A DNA stretch of 43,919 bases from positions 206,435-250,353 of IMG/VR virus record IMGVR_UViG_3300033076_001232; one strand, 5' to 3'. Under the pieces are notes generated by a model, which worked only from the letters and a program-made list of their open reading frames with translations, searched no databases and was not told where the DNA came from. Below, piece after piece: positions 20,371 through 43,919 of this stretch. How positions within the stretch are numbered: the stretch's first letter is position 1; the number at the start of each line of letters is the position of its first letter. The DNA comes from a virus. Taxonomy: Duplodnaviria; Heunggongvirae; Uroviricota; Caudoviricetes. The translations under genes and the position numbers were made by a program.

Positions 20371-21513
20371 ATGGAAAGAAAATTAGCATCCATACAGAAA
20401 ATTAGGGAGATACTCCCGATCGAAGGAGCAGACGCTATCGAATTAGCTGTTGTAAACTCCTGGAAGGTTGTAACTAAAAAAGGTGAATTTGAACCGGGAG
20501 ATCTTTGTGTATACTTCGAGATAGATTCATTTCTTCCGATGGAAAAAGACTTTGAATTTCTCAGAAAATCATCTTATAAAAAGATGGGCGATCTGGAGGG
20601 ATTCAGATTGAAGACAATCCGATTAAGAGGACAGGTTTCGCAGGGTCTTTGTTTGCCTCTAAGCATTCTTGAAAAGGATGACGAAATGAAAATAGGAATT
20701 AGCAAACAACCTTGGGGTGATCAGCTTCAGCTTGGTCCTTACGATGATGCAATAGTTATCGAAGAGGGAACTGATGTTACTGAATACATGTGTGTATTAA
20801 AATACGAGCCACCAATCCCAGCAGAACTATCAGGGAAGGTTAAAGGAGGATTCCCTGGATTCATCAGAAAAACCGACGAGGAAAGAATTCAAAATATGAC
20901 TGGACATTTCGAAAGAATGAAGTCAGAGAAATACTATGTAACGGAAAAGCTTGACGGTAGCTCTGCAACATACTATTTCAGAGACGGAGTTTTCGGAGTT
21001 TGCTCTAGAAACTTAGAGCTAGCAGATCCAGGAGAATTTGTACCAGGTACAGTTCTTTGCGAAGATGGTGTGGAAAGACCCAAGAAAGAAAACACGTTCT
21101 GGAAGGTTGCTAAAGAATTGTTCATCGAAGAAAAATTAGGAACTCTGGAGCAAAACTATGCAATTCAAGGAGAATTGATCGGTGAAGGAATTCAGGGAAA
21201 TCCATACAGGATCAAAGGTCACACTGTAAGAATTTTCAACGTGTTTAATATTGACACTCAGGAATACCTTGGACTAGAAGAAATGCGAGAATTTCTGGGT
21301 AAAATCAATGTTGATTCCAATCCAATTGAAATGGTTCCAATCCTATTCGAGGATTACACTCTACCAGAAACCATAGAAGAGATACTATCTCAGGCGGAAG
21401 GGAAATCGGTTTTAAACTCAGGGACAGAGAGGGAAGGAATAGTTATTCGAAATAGAGACAAGTCAATTTCTTTCAAAGCGATATCTAATAACTTTCTACT
21501 GAAAGAAAAATAG
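20371..21513 (+). CDS. RNA ligase, DRB0094/Rnl2-like family
   Basis: RKLASIQKI..I.PIEGADAIE, YFEIDSFLP, LRGQVSQGL, KTDEERIQN, EKLDGSS, CSRN, QGELIG, EGIV, FKAIS. Confidence 0.9.
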   Translation: MERKLASIQKIREILPIEGADAIELAVVNSWKVVTKKGEFEPGDLCVYFEIDSFLPMEKDFEFLRKSSYKKMGDLEGFRLKTIRLRGQVSQGLCLPLSILEKDDEMKIGISKQPWGDQLQLGPYDDAIVIEEGTDVTEYMCVLKYEPPIPAELSGKVKGGFPGFIRKTDEERIQNMTGHFERMKSEKYYVTEKLDGSSATYYFRDGVFGVCSRNLELADPGEFVPGTVLCEDGVERPKKENTFWKVAKELFIEEKLGTLEQNYAIQGELIGEGIQGNPYRIKGHTVRIFNVFNIDTQEYLGLEEMREFLGKINVDSNPIEMVPILFEDYTLPETIEEILSQAEGKSVLNSGTEREGIVIRNRDKSISFKAISNNFLLKEK

Positions 21514-25097: not shown

Positions 25098-26246
25098 ATG
25101 ATTTTAAATTTTCAAAGATATCTAAATGAATCCATAGAATCAGAAATGAGGGTACCGGATTACATAGAAAAAATAGCAGGCATATATTCTAAAAAAGGAA
25201 GAGCACTTTATGTTGTCGGAGGAGCAGTTAGAGATCATCTTTTAGGAAAAACACCTAAGGATTTTGATTTGGCAACAGATGCTACTCCCGACGAGTCAAT
25301 CGATATGCTTTCACCCTACTATAAAGTATTGGAGGTCGGTAAAGCCTTTGGGGTTATTAAGGTTATGGTTCCGGAGGATCCGGAAGGAGTAGAGATTGCT
25401 ACTTTCAGAGAGGAGACATATAAGGATACCAGAAGACCAGATTCGGTTAAATACTCCTCGATCGATAAAGATGTCATGAGAAGGGATTTAACTGTAAATG
25501 CTCTTTTCTATGATATAAAGGGAGGTAGGATAGTCGATCTTGTCGGAGGGATAAAAGATATTGAAGGTGGACTGATAAGAACAGTCGGAAATCCATCTGA
25601 AAGATTTTCAGAGGATCCACTTAGAAAATTAAGAGCCGTAAGATTTGCTTCTAAATTGGGATCGAAGATAGATCCAGAAACACATAAATCACTTTTAACC
25701 GATCCGGTTTTTCATAACATCTCAGTTGAAAGAATCAGAGACGAGTTTATGAAGATATTAACCAGCTCAAATGACGTTGGTGAATCTATAAACATGCTGC
25801 AGTCCTATAACATGTTATCCCAAGTATTTCCAAATCTAGAGATAGAGACAAATTCTTGGTCAGAAGAACATCCATTGGTTACTGTTGCTCTGATGCTCAA
25901 GTCAAATCCTATAGATAAGATAGAAAGAGAATTAAATAAACTCTCATGGACATCTGACGAGATAGCTAAAATTTGTTTCTTGATAAGACTTCTAACATTA
26001 TCAGAGGATAATGTATACGAACTCAGAAAAAAGATGGATGTTATAAAGTTTACTGATGTGGATGAAATTATTGACTTTGCTAATTTGTCGGGGGCAGATC
26101 AGAATTTAATTTCAGCATTCTTAGAATATAGACCTAGCATCTCAAGCAAGGATCTCATGGATCAAGGTTTTAAAGGACCTGAATTAGGGAGGGAAATCAA
26201 AAAGAGAGAAGGCTTGGAATTTAAAAAGATCCTCGATAAAAGATAG
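25098..26246 (+). CDS. cca: CCA-adding tRNA nucleotidyltransferase (class II) with capsid-targeting-like leader
   Basis: YVVGGAVRD, KDFDLATD, EIATFR, DVMRRDLTVNAL, RFSEDPLRKLRAVRF, SVERIRDE; no HD domain; leader MILNFQRYLNE-S. Confidence 0.85.
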   Translation: MILNFQRYLNESIESEMRVPDYIEKIAGIYSKKGRALYVVGGAVRDHLLGKTPKDFDLATDATPDESIDMLSPYYKVLEVGKAFGVIKVMVPEDPEGVEIATFREETYKDTRRPDSVKYSSIDKDVMRRDLTVNALFYDIKGGRIVDLVGGIKDIEGGLIRTVGNPSERFSEDPLRKLRAVRFASKLGSKIDPETHKSLLTDPVFHNISVERIRDEFMKILTSSNDVGESINMLQSYNMLSQVFPNLEIETNSWSEEHPLVTVALMLKSNPIDKIERELNKLSWTSDEIAKICFLIRLLTLSEDNVYELRKKMDVIKFTDVDEIIDFANLSGADQNLISAFLEYRPSISSKDLMDQGFKGPELGREIKKREGLEFKKILDKR

Positions 26247-39863: not shown

Positions 39864-41240
39864 CTATTTTATAGAAATAGTTATGTCACCATAATCAATT
39901 CCACTATTCATTTTTTGCTTGTGGTGATTCCAGGTGTTTTTATGTCTTATATATTGTGGATTATCTAGTAGGGATATATTTTTTGTAAGCTGATGGGTGT
40001 AGTATGGTGGGGTTACTATCTTAGACAGCACATTAAAGTTAAAACTCTTATGCTTATCAGTTCTCTCGTCAAATTTTCCAGTATATGAATTCACTTTCTG
40101 GAAATCTGAAACCGTACCGCTTATTATTTCATTGATCGTAGAATCACCGCTGCAGTGTCTAAATCCAGGGGCAGAAGCAACTAAAAAACTAGGATTATCA
40201 GAAAACCATTTTATCGGATCCTCCATTAAACTCGTGTTTTCATAGATATCAAATCTACGATGATTGTTAGATTTTCTCCCCCATAAAATAAAATTAACCA
40301 TTGAGGTATTCTCCAACACCCCATTTACGTATAACGAAACCTCATAGGTATTCTCATAGTCACCAGATCTAACCATCTCCATTCTAAGATTATACCATTT
40401 TGATAGCTCGAACTTATAATCGGTATAGATACACTGAGCCCCGTCTCCTAGAGGGAGACTAATTCCAATTGAGAACGGACTGGATTTTTCACTAAATCTA
40501 TTTTTATAGTAAAATACTCCACGTTTTGCATTCACTCTTACATTTTCATAAGGAGCAACTGCTCCAATTGAAATGAAATTTTCAGGAAATTCCTGATAAG
40601 ACCATTTACCTTCACCAATATCAGTGGCATCAGCATACTGAAATCTCATAATCTCAGTGCGTCTGGTGGTGTTGCTCTGATATGTAGAATCTACGGATTT
40701 ATACCAGGTTCTCTCGGGAAATCTATTCAATTTAAATGAACAAGTGAGCGTGTATTCTGAATTCATTCCCTTCGTATCGTGATATATGGGCTTCCAATTA
40801 TCCTGACTTAGCTCATTCCTTCCTAAAATCTGTAAAGTCGGCTGATAGGAGAAATTCATAAGATCATCCGATAATCCCTTGAATTTTTTATCTGCTCCTG
40901 TAATCACTGTAGATTTTATCTCAGTGCTAGTTAAAACGATAAGATTACTGGATGATGTTTTTGGTTGATATGTAAAAACTGTTCTTCTTTCAGCCTTTGT
41001 ATCAATTAAAGAGTTGATCTTAACTAGTGTTGAAGGTTCAACAAATTTAATAGCATCCTTAGTTGTCTCATCTACAGATTTTATTAATTGCTCCTGTAAT
41101 AGATCATATCTTTCTTTTTCCTTTTCACTCAGGTCTTTACCCTCAGATTCAACTTTAACCTTGAGTTTTTCATACTCAGGATATAATCTTTTTACTTTAT
41201 TTGCTAGCTCTAGAGCTTTTGCTTTATTGACTGAACTCAT
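39864..41240 (-). CDS. hypothetical protein, N-terminal helical region plus LamG-like beta-sandwich
   Basis: YTLTCSFKL, KWYNLRME...VSLYVNGVLE. Confidence 0.6.
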   Translation of the reverse strand: MSSVNKAKALELANKVKRLYPEYEKLKVKVESEGKDLSEKEKERYDLLQEQLIKSVDETTKDAIKFVEPSTLVKINSLIDTKAERRTVFTYQPKTSSSNLIVLTSTEIKSTVITGADKKFKGLSDDLMNFSYQPTLQILGRNELSQDNWKPIYHDTKGMNSEYTLTCSFKLNRFPERTWYKSVDSTYQSNTTRRTEIMRFQYADATDIGEGKWSYQEFPENFISIGAVAPYENVRVNAKRGVFYYKNRFSEKSSPFSIGISLPLGDGAQCIYTDYKFELSKWYNLRMEMVRSGDYENTYEVSLYVNGVLENTSMVNFILWGRKSNNHRRFDIYENTSLMEDPIKWFSDNPSFLVASAPGFRHCSGDSTINEIISGTVSDFQKVNSYTGKFDERTDKHKSFNFNVLSKIVTPPYYTHQLTKNISLLDNPQYIRHKNTWNHHKQKMNSGIDYGDITISIK

Positions 41241-41255
41241 TAATTAAATCTTATT

Positions 41256-41717
41256 TTATGCTACTTTGGTTAGAGTTGCGTCGTATGTTCCCTCCACACC
41301 TTTGATAGTACCTGTTCCAGTAAAAGCTATAACTGAGCTTCTCTTTTTGGCCTCCGCTGCTATTTTATTCAGTGTTGAATCATCTAATTTGAAAACCTTA
41401 TCCGTATTGTCCTTTGCGTAAATGTGATTATCCTTATCACTTTTCCAAATAGCATCCACAGCAATTGGTCCATTGTACCAGCTGATACCGAGTTTTTTGA
41501 CATCAACCTTCAACTTATAGTAGGTCTCGTTACCTCCATATATTAGAACTAATCTCCCGGTGAGATCTTTAGGCGTTCCCTTCTTAGGACCTTCCGTAAA
41601 AACCCCTCCGTGCGATCGAGCAGTGACAATTTTAACACCCTTCCATTCAGTTCCTTCAAAAAGAGAATGCTCCAAAGATTCATTTACAAAATCGGAGTAA
41701 TTTTTTAAGTTTTCCAT
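41256..41717 (-). CDS. basic hypothetical protein with leader
   Basis: MENLKNYSDFVNE-SLEHSLFE-G. Confidence 0.7.
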   Translation of the reverse strand: MENLKNYSDFVNESLEHSLFEGTEWKGVKIVTARSHGGVFTEGPKKGTPKDLTGRLVLIYGGNETYYKLKVDVKKLGISWYNGPIAVDAIWKSDKDNHIYAKDNTDKVFKLDDSTLNKIAAEAKKRSSVIAFTGTGTIKGVEGTYDATLTKVA

Positions 41718-41735
41718 CTAACGTAATTGGTTTCT

Positions 41736-41744
41736 CTATATATT
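41736..41744 (-). promoter_or_regulatory. putative late promoter AATATATAG
   Basis: 18 nt upstream of 41717 start. Confidence 0.5.
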
Positions 41745-41768
41745 CACAAGAACCAATTAACAATTAAA

Positions 41769-42071
41769 CTAATCCTTCTTTGCTGACAATAATTCCATTA
41801 GAGACACAATCTGATTATCATTTAGACAGATTTCAATCATAGATTCAATTTGCTCCAGATTAAAGGATCCATATGGTCTAAACCAATCACCGTCTAAAAA
41901 TTTGCACCAGAGAACGATGTCGCATGTTGATATCCCACCTTTCCTTTCCGGATGGTGCGTGGAACTTCCGTAAGCTATCTTGAAGGGAAGTTCTTCTCTG
42001 AGAGTTTTTTCTCTAAAAGCTTCCCTTGCATTCTTAGATAAAAAATTATTGATCTTTTCCTGGTACTCCAT
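41769..42071 (-). CDS. hypothetical protein
   Basis: In-operon ORF. Confidence 0.6.
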
Positions 42072-42079
42072 ATTGAATG

Positions 42080-42238
42080 TTATCTTTTGACTCTAAATCC
42101 CCAAGGGTAGAATGGATAGTTTGCCAAATACTGAACACCGTACTTGTCGACGTAGTTATGAACATCTTTCCCAGAAACACCATCAGTAAAATTAAATCCA
42201 ATGTGTCTCATTGTGAATCTGCTAATTAACTTCTTCAT
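42080..42238 (-). CDS. 52-aa hypothetical protein (not in ORF track)
   Basis: [52 protein letters not shown]; ATG 15 nt after tRNA-like element, A-rich upstream. Confidence 0.65.
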
Positions 42239-42253
42239 TTTCTCTTTTTATTG

Positions 42254-42370
42254 TAGTCAGGACAGGATTCGAACCTGTGTTTACACTTTACTTGTATTAG
42301 CTGTGTCCGATAGATTGGGTACCAATACATTTCCCTCCCCACCTGCTCTAAACCACTGAGCTACCTGACT
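42254..42370 (-). ncRNA. tRNA-like element 1 (117 nt) with 65-nt insert replacing anticodon/variable arms
   Basis: Acceptor AGTCAGG/CCTGACT plus discriminator A, TA, D-arm GCTC-AGTGGTTTA-GAGC, T-arm ACAGG-TTCGAAT-CCTGT; no canonical anticodon arm; no encoded CCA. Confidence 0.8.
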
Positions 42371-42378
42371 TAAGATTA

Positions 42379-42951
42379 TTATCTAATCTTTGCCATCATT
42401 TCTTTCAACTGTTTCTCGGTCTCAACATTGATAATGGTCAATCTACTAACTGGTTTTGAGAATGATAACGGTACCGTAGAAACCATGTAGTGCATGTTAT
42501 GTTCAATATAGATATCTTCAGGGGTAAATCCAAAGACCGCATCCCCATTGGTTCCATATGAACCGTCTTCAGCAGGGCTTGGTAATACGTGTTGTCCCCA
42601 CCCATCACCAGAATGAGGTGATGTATAAGTTACAATTTGTTCGGTATTGGTGAGTTGCGAGTTGACTGAAGATACCTTATTAACTTGGTAGTACCCAATT
42701 GGTTCTCCCACACCTTCAACAAACACGTACATGTAAAAAGAAATAGTTCTATCATTCTGTAACTTAAATCGTTTGATTAGGTTATCTCTCTCCAATGACC
42801 ATGAAATTTTTGGTGCTGGCTGAATAGCGTTCAGGTCTCTTTGATTAGCTTCCGTTTTCTTTTGCTCATCTAAAGCGGAAGTGTTTTCTAATTCTCGGTC
42901 GCATGATGTTATAACAAACATCAATACTAAAATTGCTAATAATCTTTTCAT
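42379..42951 (-). CDS. putative lipoprotein, conserved phage family
   Basis: MKRLLAILVLMFVITS-C-DRE; PAEDGSYGTN motif. Confidence 0.7.
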   Translation of the reverse strand: MKRLLAILVLMFVITSCDRELENTSALDEQKKTEANQRDLNAIQPAPKISWSLERDNLIKRFKLQNDRTISFYMYVFVEGVGEPIGYYQVNKVSSVNSQLTNTEQIVTYTSPHSGDGWGQHVLPSPAEDGSYGTNGDAVFGFTPEDIYIEHNMHYMVSTVPLSFSKPVSRLTIINVETEKQLKEMMAKIR

Positions 42952-42954
42952 GTT

Positions 42955-43350
42955 TTAGTTATTACAGTTAAATTCTTGGTTACTTAATTGATATGGTAAA
43001 CTACTTGACTTCCATAATGATCGGCCCCACATCTTTGACTTCGCATTATACTCCTCAATCCATCTGTTAAGGTTTGTTCTTAAAGCCAAAATTCTTTGTG
43101 CTTTGCTGAACTGACTGAACATAGGATCGGTGTCAGGAACATCCTTCATGTTACAAATATCTGTGTTTAATTTTACACAGGTATTGTAAATTTCTTGATA
43201 CTCTTCGTAGTGAATCACTGCGGTATCAATTTTAGTAGCCTCACGTACTTTGTGTACAATGTAACTAACTGCAGATAAGACCAGCGTTAATCCAATGATC
43301 CAGTAAATAATCTTTTTTACGAATCTTTTTTCTTCTTGAAATTCATCCAT
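42955..43350 (-). CDS. single-TM helical membrane protein
   Basis: TM IIYWIIGLTLVLSAVSYIV; C-terminal EEYNAKSKM..RSLWKSSSLPYQL. Confidence 0.7.
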   Translation of the reverse strand: MDEFQEEKRFVKKIIYWIIGLTLVLSAVSYIVHKVREATKIDTAVIHYEEYQEIYNTCVKLNTDICNMKDVPDTDPMFSQFSKAQRILALRTNLNRWIEEYNAKSKMWGRSLWKSSSLPYQLSNQEFNCNN

Positions 43351-43453
43351 TTTTTTCTTTTTTTTAGTTAGTAAAAATCCCAGTCTTTCCGGGGAGTCAG
43401 CTATTTAGTGTACGTTTAAAAGGTCGTTTAGCATAGCTGCCGTTCTTTCCTTG

Positions 43454-43573
43454 TAGTCAGGACAGGATTCGAACCTGTGATAGATACCATCAGCTGTGGA
43501 CGCAGTATCTCCGTGAGTCCCGTTGGCATTGTTACTCTCCACTTTCGGGGCGTGTTCCTATCGCCACCTGACT
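43454..43573 (-). ncRNA. tRNA-like element 2 (120 nt) with 71-nt insert
   Basis: Same acceptor AGTCAGG/CCTGACT-A and T-arm ACAGG-TTCGAAT-CCTGT; TG, D-arm GCG-ATAGGAACA-CGC; insert has CCCG/CGGG and AGATAC/GTATCT stems. Confidence 0.8.
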
Positions 43574-43580
43574 ATTTGTT

Positions 43581-43820
43581 TTATTTAGATAATTCAAATT
43601 GATAAACACAACTTTGATTTCCCGATTCATTCCTCACTAAATAATCGTGTCTTCCCGTTTCAATTATCGTGACAGTTTCACCTGATATAAATCCAGTGTT
43701 TTCAGTGTAACAAAAATGAATCCTGCATTTGTCACCGATCTTAAATCGTTGCTGGATTGGTGTTGAATAACCCCAATTGTTGTCAACCAATTTTAATAAT
43801 TTCCAAAGTAACTTTTTCAT
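43581..43820 (-). CDS. 79-aa hypothetical protein, possible SH3/KOW-like barrel
   Basis: FKIGDKCRI...GETVTIIE...YLV; start MKKLLWK at 43820 since the longer track start runs through the tRNA-like element. Confidence 0.65.
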   Translation of the reverse strand: MKKLLWKLLKLVDNNWGYSTPIQQRFKIGDKCRIHFCYTENTGFISGETVTIIETGRHDYLVRNESGNQSCVYQFELSK

Positions 43821-43834
43821 AATTTTAATTTTTG

Positions 43835-43919
43835 TAGTCAGAACAGGATTCGAACCTGCATGATTTAGTTTCTCTATTTGTAATGTGTTTAGATAGCACA
43901 AAACATCTTAGCGTCTACC
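43835..43919 (-). ncRNA. tRNA-like element 3 (5' part outside window) with 51-nt insert
   Basis: 3' acceptor TCTGACT-A, T-arm GCAGG-TTCGAAT-CCTGT, D-arm end GGTAGA-CGC. Confidence 0.7.

Follow-up and report, generated by a model that had tools for sequence, protein, structure and literature searches.

We analysed a 43,919-nucleotide (nt) stretch of phage DNA, hereafter the window, which forms the last 43.9 kb of the 250,353-bp IMG/VR virus record IMGVR_UViG_3300033076_001232 (G000; linear, 36% G+C, 92% complete according to CheckV), and focused on an array of three tRNA-shaped elements (E1, E2 and E3) and small open reading frames (ORFs) that occupies the final 2.2 kb. All features of the array lie on the minus strand. 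E3 (43835..43919) comes first and is cut by the contig end; what is left of it begins with a remnant (GGTAGACGC) of a D arm of Leu type and continues with the insert, the T arm and the 3' strand of the acceptor stem with A73. An ORF of 79 amino acids (aa) and no known family (43581..43820) starts 14 nt past A73 of E3 and stops 7 nt ahead of E2 (43454..43573), a 120-nt RNA gene with acceptor stem, D arm, T arm and A73, which carries a 63-nt insert in place of the anticodon arm and does not encode CCA. A terminator-like hairpin with a T run (43371..43393; hairpin 43393-43379) then separates E2 from two ORFs and forms the upstream border of the module that they make up. The first, of 131 aa (42955..43350), would have an N-terminal membrane helix, and the second, of 190 aa (42379..42951), is a predicted lipoprotein whose signal peptide ends in ITSC, both judged from the sequence; together they are a portable two-gene module. 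The stop of the 190-aa ORF lies 8 nt ahead of E1 (42254..42370), a 117-nt RNA gene with a class-I-type D arm, an extended anticodon-like stem, a variable-arm hairpin, a T arm and A73, again with no encoded CCA. Two ORFs without known family end the array, one of 52 aa (42080..42238), which starts 15 nt past A73 of E1, and one of 100 aa (41769..42071). The initial annotation of this DNA had given the same order, coordinates and spacings of 7 and 8 nt (stops before E2 and E1) and 14 and 15 nt (ATGs after A73 of E3 and E1), and these hold. No further copy beyond E1–E3 was found in the 250-kb record by pattern, 5'-half and general cloverleaf scans.

E1–E3 are almost certainly RNA genes made of a constant frame plus an insert, and not tRNAs. 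Their likeness to tRNA, also pointed out in the initial annotation, is genuine: the Rfam tRNA model (RF00005) aligned end to end with E1 at 47.1 bits and with E2 at 27.6 bits, slightly under the 29-bit gathering score, and placed 61 nt (E1) and 63 nt (E2) at the site of the 17-nt anticodon arm. The frame of E1–E3 consists of a 7-bp acceptor stem (AGUCAGG/CCUGACU), a GG-bearing D arm, a T arm with UUCGAAU and A73. In the Rfam alignments and the consensus structures of E1 and E2, the 7-bp acceptor stem, the D arm and the T arm with its UUCRANY loop are present as in RF00005, while the anticodon arm of that family (5 bp with a 7-nt loop, for a total of about 70–95 nt) is missing from the 117 nt of E1 and the 120 nt of E2. 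The fold of E1 is a cloverleaf in which the 5-bp anticodon-like stem is prolonged by a 3-bp helix and closed by a 13-nt loop, with the variable-arm hairpin beside it. By comparison with an orthologue (L431:5742-5844), E3 lacks 16 nt at its 5' end, comprising the acceptor strand and part of the D arm. The 24-nt block at the 3' end had been described as identical in the three elements; this is correct for E1 and E2, while E3 differs by one base (C to T, making a G-U pair), giving 0, 0 and 1 mismatches in E1, E2 and E3, and the three copies compare with none in 100 shuffles. ARAGORN in default mode reported no tRNA in the window or the entire 250-kb record, and a permissive Rfam search of 41000-43919 gave only two matches, both to the tRNA model. 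A role as decoding tRNAs was ruled out, with inserts of 60–65 nt standing in for the anticodon arm.

To find relatives of the individual elements, orthologues were retrieved via the motif ACAGCURAU, which is common to E1 and E2 and lies directly past the anticodon-like stem (minus strand, 42300-42312 in E1 and 43482-43494 in E2). This yielded 8 distinct sequences for E1 and 9 for E2, the window's own included in both cases. The one orthologue of E3, in L431, shows 95% identity over 60 nt and differs by a compensatory change in the T stem. Orthologues are 89-95% identical, and the identity is limited to the element and at most about 30 nt on each side; blastn and tblastx comparisons of the orthologue loci revealed no flanking gene in common. 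The RNA gene is therefore the conserved unit. In the E1 family, all 248 pair cells of the 31 consensus pairs are paired. Compensation is seen at two of these pairs: one in the D stem changes from C-G to U-A, and one in the anticodon-like stem occurs as G-C, G-U or A-U. The internal hairpin of the E2 family keeps its loop (AUNCCAAC), while the stem is wholly changed in L416 (GAAGAAC/GUUCUUC), a sequence that also carries a compensatory acceptor change of G6-C to U-A. Since the inserts are conserved and their pairing is kept, the elements are neither decaying tRNAs nor mere spacers. When the loop motif of E2 (TAACAATGCCAAC) with a T arm behind it was searched for loosely, 90 stretches came back, many of which are probably chance matches given 13+5 specified bases and a variable gap. 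ACAGCURAU was also seen in a third large insert family (about 105 nt, core ...GGUUGAGAUAACAGCUAAUGGCACUC...) in L081, L104, L245, L249 and about 20 other loci. This third family also occurs within frames of other acceptor stems (L296, L314), and inserts can thus move between frames.

E1–E3 belong to a very large, phage-specific RNA family, which we defined by a constant 5' half (AGUCAGG plus D arm), a constant 3' half (ACAGG-UUCGAAU-CCUGU-CCUGACU-A) and an unrelated insert between them; all three elements fit this definition. The 24-nt 3' block was found exactly in more than 120 IMG/VR contigs among the matches listed, where the frame encloses inserts of 20-200 nt. The 145 block copies among these matches have the 5' half in common, mostly AGUCAGG-UG-GCGGAAUGGUAGACGC, which is a Leu-type D arm, and their middles are unrelated and cover a several-fold length range. 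A second scan was keyed to the 5' half alone and left the 3' half unselected. It gave 101 distinct elements of 70-279 nt (median 105), among which the T stem occurs in the compensatory variants ACCGG/CCGGU, ACUGG/CCAGU, GAAGG/CCUUC and GCUGG/CCAGC. Such changes suggest that selection acts on the RNA and not on the DNA alone. A73 is present in 89 of the 101 elements and C74 in nearly all, and CCA is encoded in none. The "anticodons" assigned by ARAGORN across the family are scattered, and irregular loops are common.

We class the family as putative phage tRNA-derived small RNAs. Among 185,579 prokaryote species, each represented by one genome, the 25-nt form of the 3' block is exact in just 14 contigs of metagenome-assembled genomes, which are mostly short (three above 25 kb, at most 215 kb) and taxonomically incongruent. 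An origin of the frame from a host tRNA was rejected on this near absence from prokaryote genomes. The elements of other phages are found within or next to large tRNA clusters, GOLLD RNAs and a transfer-messenger RNA (tmRNA); GOLLD RNAs (306 bits) at L025:4476-4887 and L099:153-560 lie within about 1–2 kb of elements. Rfam searches of 18 family loci matched the elements with the tRNA model only, and the literature searched contained no description of a family with a tRNA frame and variable inserts. Regular tRNA-Lys(UUU) genes of 71-72 nt with the AGUCAGG acceptor stem and a near-identical T arm were observed in L126 (4583-4653) and L027 (c13030-13101), and differ from each other by a compensatory change in the anticodon stem. 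The frame is thus common to the elements and at least one probable decoder.

Exchange at the elements was examined across the family with 135 loci and 244 complete elements, using the internal ends of BLAST high-scoring segment pairs of at least 250 bp. Homology ended within elements in 63 of 759 distinct internal ends, compared with 23.6 ± 4.7 by random placement (maximum 39 in 1000 trials); the 5' half received 32 of the 63 and the 3' half the other 31, and no insert contained any. When pairs of elements from different loci were compared, the insert only was in common, between different flanks, in 53 pairs, and both flanks were in common around different inserts in 24. The upstream flank only was common to 23 pairs, the downstream flank only to 20 and everything to 15, while an insert together with one flank was in common in none. 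Seven loci (L035, L053, L066, L070, L071, L074 and L087) have near-identical flanks, yet the frame at this one site holds five or more inserts that are unrelated to each other; the insert was replaced in situ in L035, L053, L066, L070, L071 and L074. The elements are genuine mosaic borders but not exceptional hot spots.

The same behaviour was found within the array. Locus L137, which comes from the complete jumbo-phage record G002 (257 kb), matches window positions 43861-43562 at 91% nucleotide identity; the match starts two bases ahead of the T stem of E3, runs through the 79-aa ORF and ends at base 12 of E2, and the inserts differ on both sides. For the 131- and 190-aa pair, L126, L127 and L128 match the window from 43366/43374 to 42352/42360, that is from just past the terminator-like hairpin to 11–19 nt into E1, and the 190-aa protein is 92-96% identical in these three loci. 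Past the break, the same frame holds a 71-nt true-looking tRNA-Lys(UUU) in L126, a 118-nt element in L127 and an 82-nt element in L128, and the genes downstream are unrelated. Four of the five module borders in the window thus lie in constant halves and one at the terminator-like hairpin. The comparison with related phages that the initial annotation had proposed therefore brings out the expected pattern, with breakpoints at the constant block and an ORF content between elements that varies among relatives. Its idea of a recombination anchor stands in so far as the homology of neighbouring genes breaks in the constant halves (L137; L126-L128), while its integron-like mechanism is unsupported, with no tyrosine integrase found in the record. 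Overall, its interpretation is partly supported.

Taken together, these observations make it probable that the elements combine RNA processing with exchange through homology arms. E1–E3 would encode tRNA-shaped small RNAs, each with its own conserved insert in place of the anticodon arm, and would lie with the small accessory ORFs in one transcription unit. The short spacers, the spacing peaks of the family and the lack of a -7 box inside the array speak for such co-transcription. The intact acceptor stem and the D/T elbow would let host RNase P cut the 5' end, an endonuclease or exonuclease would trim the 3' end, and CCA would then be added, possibly by a nucleotidyltransferase of the phage itself. 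Stable RNAs would be released in this way, and as a by-product the polycistronic RNA would be cut just past the upstream stop and 14–15 nt ahead of the AUG that follows. In the DNA, homology between phages is seen to start or stop at the two constant halves, each about 25–30 nt long, which so behave as short portable homology arms. Inserts and neighbouring ORFs may be swapped through these halves, most likely by general recombination in co-infection. Such homology-driven exchange through halves of 25-30 nt would be a simpler reading than a site-specific mechanism. A further step, which we put forward only tentatively, is that the whole forms a modular phage RNA toolkit, in which the frame might secure processing, CCA addition and perhaps charging, the inserts might be interchangeable effectors (aptamers, decoys or base-pairing modules) against host factors, and the frame halves might serve as built-in recombination arms, with phages trading RNA effectors, and the small ORFs between them, in co-infection. 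If so, this would be the RNA-gene counterpart of cassette systems, and no dedicated recombinase would be needed.

Several points weigh against processing combined with arm-mediated exchange. Homology ends were found in 19.9% of elements and in 9.9% of tight ORF-ORF junctions (odds ratio 2.3, p = 3e-5), but the rates per nucleotide are similar because the elements are 2.5 times wider than ORF-ORF junctions. BLAST extends through any constant half, so the border between frame and insert receives ends by construction. One module border of the window falls at the terminator-like hairpin and not at an element. The fold stability of the elements is not significant against shuffles (z = -1.5, -0.4 and -0.4), and the covariation in E1 is modest, with 19 of 500 shuffles reaching the observed values, owing to the closeness of the orthologues. 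A search of the phage's own genome gave no target of the inserts: apart from one same-sense 13-mer it contains no match of at least 13 nt to those of E1–E3, and 12-mer matches are at chance level. Finally, we infer the transcription, processing and stability of E1–E3 from their sequences.

The initial annotation had offered another use of the elements, namely that they let RNase P/RNase Z divide a single transcript into separately regulated mRNAs. If punctuation were the primary function, as in animal mitochondria, the resulting mRNAs would be separately stable or translatable and the insert irrelevant. The layout of the window is partly in line with it: the spacers to the flanking ORFs are very short (7–15 nt), and no Bacteroidota-type -7 box (TAnnTTTG) was found on the minus strand between 41700 and 43919. 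The terminator-like hairpin 3' of E2, however, fits it poorly. A scan for sigma-70-type promoters stayed at or below shuffle expectation. Across the family, 70 of 231 elements start at most 20 nt past a same-strand stop, with a peak at 5-9 nt, and the distance to the next same-strand ATG peaks at 15-19 nt. An A-rich leader of 14–15 nt recurs ahead of unrelated ORFs, after E1 and E3 in the window and in L411, L416 and L301; in other phages it follows E1-type and E2-type elements. A similar layout is known from mitochondrial tRNA punctuation, where tRNA-shaped units lie directly between same-strand ORFs with spacers of a few nucleotides; unlike these, E1–E3 are non-decoding, their spacers are 7-15 nt and not 0-2 nt, and many family members are not beside ORFs. 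Punctuation needs the frame only, yet the inserts are 89-95% conserved where the flanking genes differ. Moreover, only about 30% of the family lies within 20 nt after an ORF and 16% within 20 nt before one, some members have a TAnnTTTG box of their own 4 nt upstream, and many are in pure tRNA clusters with no ORF next to them. Should the frame be a substrate of RNase P and a 3' nuclease, cuts in the transcript at the element borders would follow of necessity, and punctuation is then a likely consequence. As the reason for the existence of the elements it is unlikely, because the inserts are conserved independently of the neighbours and many elements stand alone, among tRNAs or with their own promoter box. 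The box was observed as TAtaTTTG, a match to the Bacteroidota -7 box, 5' of the elements of L035, L053, L066, L070, L071, L074 and L087, and ends 4 nt before +1. A box so placed implies a transcription start very close to the mature 5' end and, for the L035-type subgroup, a host from the Bacteroidota.

A tRNA mimic is an unlikely alternative to processing combined with exchange. Here the elements would be ligands or substrates of LeuRS (leucyl-tRNA synthetase), the CCA-adding enzyme, EF-Tu or anticodon nucleases and the insert would tune the interaction, for example in decoys against tRNA-targeting defence or in a charged non-decoding RNA. Most members have a Leu-type D arm (GGCGGAAUGGUAGACGC) and 88% have A73; bacterial LeuRS is not known to read the anticodon. 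The same frame is also used by a tRNA-Lys(UUU)-like member (L126, L027), and the phage encodes enzymes that could act on such RNAs. One is a class II nucleotidyltransferase of the CCA-adding and poly(A) polymerase family (25098..26246, plus strand; PF01743 at 127.5 bits, and PF12627), a candidate that could complete the 3' ends of the CCA-less elements. The other is an RNA ligase (20371..21513, plus strand) with an OB-fold PHA02142 domain and an RNA_ligase domain, which is likely part of a tRNA repair and maturation toolkit and may be tied to the elements. Both enzymes count for processing combined with exchange as well: in a record without canonical tRNA, they fit circumstantially with a need to complete or repair CCA-less tRNA-shaped RNAs. 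Against mimicry, the D arm of E1 is of class-I type and not Leu-type, and the range of insert sizes and sequences (70-279 nt) is hard to fit to a single protein target.

Less credible still is an integron-like system, in which the constant 3' block would be the site of a site-specific recombinase that captures and shuffles ORFs. The differing ORF content between elements among relatives and the breakpoints in constant blocks would agree with it. In the 250-kb record, however, no tyrosine integrase of family PF00589 was found, an absence that is not absolute at 92% completeness; the same search matched 14 of 14 control genomes. No conserved partner protein stands beside the elements (104 adjacent ORFs fall into 91 clusters), and 89 representative element-adjacent ORFs have no common recombinase, with about ten carrying a Pfam domain, all different. 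Breakpoints lie in both halves (32 and 31), as homology-driven exchange predicts, and not at one crossover site, and the junction rate per nucleotide is no higher than at ordinary gene junctions. Integrons also differ in having the tyrosine integrase IntI beside the array and cassettes that end in imperfect inverted-repeat attC sites, where the repeats here are tRNA cloverleaves and one module border falls at a terminator-like hairpin. The lack of an integrase and the ordinary junction rate set a limit on any cassette idea.

Equally remote is the view that the elements are phage tRNAs in decay, or functional tRNAs from which the inserts are removed by splicing. In its favour are the intron-mode ARAGORN calls of tRNA-Ser(GGA) with a 29-nt intron for E1 and tRNA-Ile(GAU) with a 49-nt intron for E2, and the true-looking tRNAs with the same acceptor stem, such as tRNA-Lys(UUU) in L126 and L027. 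Against it, the inserts keep sequence and predicted pairing across phages, unlike pseudogenes, and the "anticodons" are scattered over the family with many irregular loops. Moreover, group I introns are far longer than 29–49 nt, and a Ser identity for E1 does not agree with A73. Intron-containing tRNAs were rejected as candidates, since the permissive intron-mode ARAGORN calls are the only ones for them and are not credible against the identity rules. No pathway by which bacteria would splice out inserts this short is known to us.

Processing combined with arm-mediated exchange may be compared with several known systems. The promoter-early stem-loop (PeSL) "mobile regulatory cassettes" of T4-type phages and the boundary sequences of mosaic phage genomes are short conserved non-coding flanks of small accessory genes in hyperplastic regions, located at modular exchange points. 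In the array, unlike in these, the conserved parts are two halves of a structured RNA gene with conserved content, and not promoters or terminators. Among described objects, the nearest are two stable RNAs of the T4 tRNA gene cluster, RNAC (species 1, 139 nt) and RNAD, the biological roles of which are unknown (PMC3014915, PMC9697503). As predicted for the elements, RNAC and RNAD are phage-encoded stable small RNAs amid tRNA genes and small ORFs. RNAC is analogous in shape: its 3' part consists of a canonical T arm (CCGGG-UUCGAAU-CCCGG) and then a strand complementary to the 5' end, with a long insert between. On the other hand, RNAC has no sequence similarity to the elements, its closing stem is imperfect and it is not matched by the Rfam tRNA model (the best match is tRNA-Sec at 17.5 bits), and in RNAD no T arm can be seen. 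Both RNAs are single-copy in T4, whereas the tRNA-frame family has one constant frame and hundreds of inserts. With class II tRNA-Leu and other phage tRNAs (RF00005) the elements have in common the 7-bp acceptor stem, the GG D arm, the T arm, A73 and a location within or near phage tRNA clusters. They differ by the missing canonical 5-bp/7-nt anticodon arm, by their length (103-120 nt here and 70-279 nt family-wide), by A1-U72 in place of G1-C72 and by a frame that is almost invariant across unrelated phages.

The engineered tRNA scaffold and the natural tRNA-domain chimeras tmRNA and YrlA (PMC4201824) resemble the elements in that a tRNA frame carries a foreign RNA domain at the place of the anticodon arm; the frame would provide processing and stability. 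In YrlA, the two ends of the RNA lie on the opposite side of the tRNA-like module. The tmRNA differs in having no D arm and carrying an ORF, and the E1–E3 family differs from the engineered scaffold in that it would be natural, phage-borne and highly diversified. Should the predicted RNAs indeed be produced, hundreds of different small RNAs on one tRNA frame would be encoded by large phages that infect freshwater and marine bacteria; standard annotation misses them or mislabels them as odd tRNAs. They would then be a large unexplored class of phage RNA effectors and a natural case of the laboratory "tRNA scaffold" trick. For genome evolution, the same insert between unrelated flanks and the same flanks around unrelated inserts indicate that a structured RNA gene can act as a mosaic boundary. 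For the window itself, three RNA genes can now be annotated, together with an accessory island that is hypervariable.

The record G000 is a jumbo phage. Its closest named DNA relative, Tenacibaculum phage Gundel_1, matches weakly in one gene, and the complete jumbo-phage records G001 (289 kb) and G002 have parts of the array region in common with the window. In G001 the 131- and 190-aa module is at another genome position, syntenic to 176-179 kb of G000, and the backbone ORFs downstream of the array (153 and 458 aa) are preceded by other genes and no element. The 190-aa ORF has related copies in 11 loci at 58-96% identity. Gundel_1 contains an unannotated homologue of the 131-aa ORF, and 8 nt after its gene pair (L124:3436-4426) lies a 110-nt "tRNA-Tyr" whose acceptor stem is not that of the frame and whose anticodon loop is irregular; a second T-arm-like hairpin was also seen in it. 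The pair of membrane protein and lipoprotein, which recalls a spanin or superinfection-exclusion pair, occurs as a portable module in at least 12 phages at differing genome positions. In 6 of 13 module loci (the window, L126-L129 and Gundel_1) a tRNA-shaped element stands 3' of the lipoprotein gene, with a gap from stop to element of 8-12 nt in five and about 160 nt in L129. Homologues of the 79-aa ORF are also present in L138, L139 and the 634-kb phage LR745206, where no tRNA-like element was found nearby, and the 100-aa ORF has no relative in IMG/VR.

Three observations concern the ends and the remainder of the record. The contig end (43919) falls within the constant D-arm region of E3, which suggests that the repeated frame caused the assembly to break here; the array would then probably extend into the 8% of the genome that is missing. 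Outside the window, a tmRNA lies at G000:C1:145863-146354 on the plus strand (RF00023, 87.3 bits against a cut-off of 47 bits), with the tag peptide EEVELAVAA according to ARAGORN; a tmRNA is likewise present in the element-bearing phage locus L025. The contig start (G000:C1:1-300) is a tandemly repeated coding stretch, the first 20-30 nt of which recur at offsets 63 and 135.

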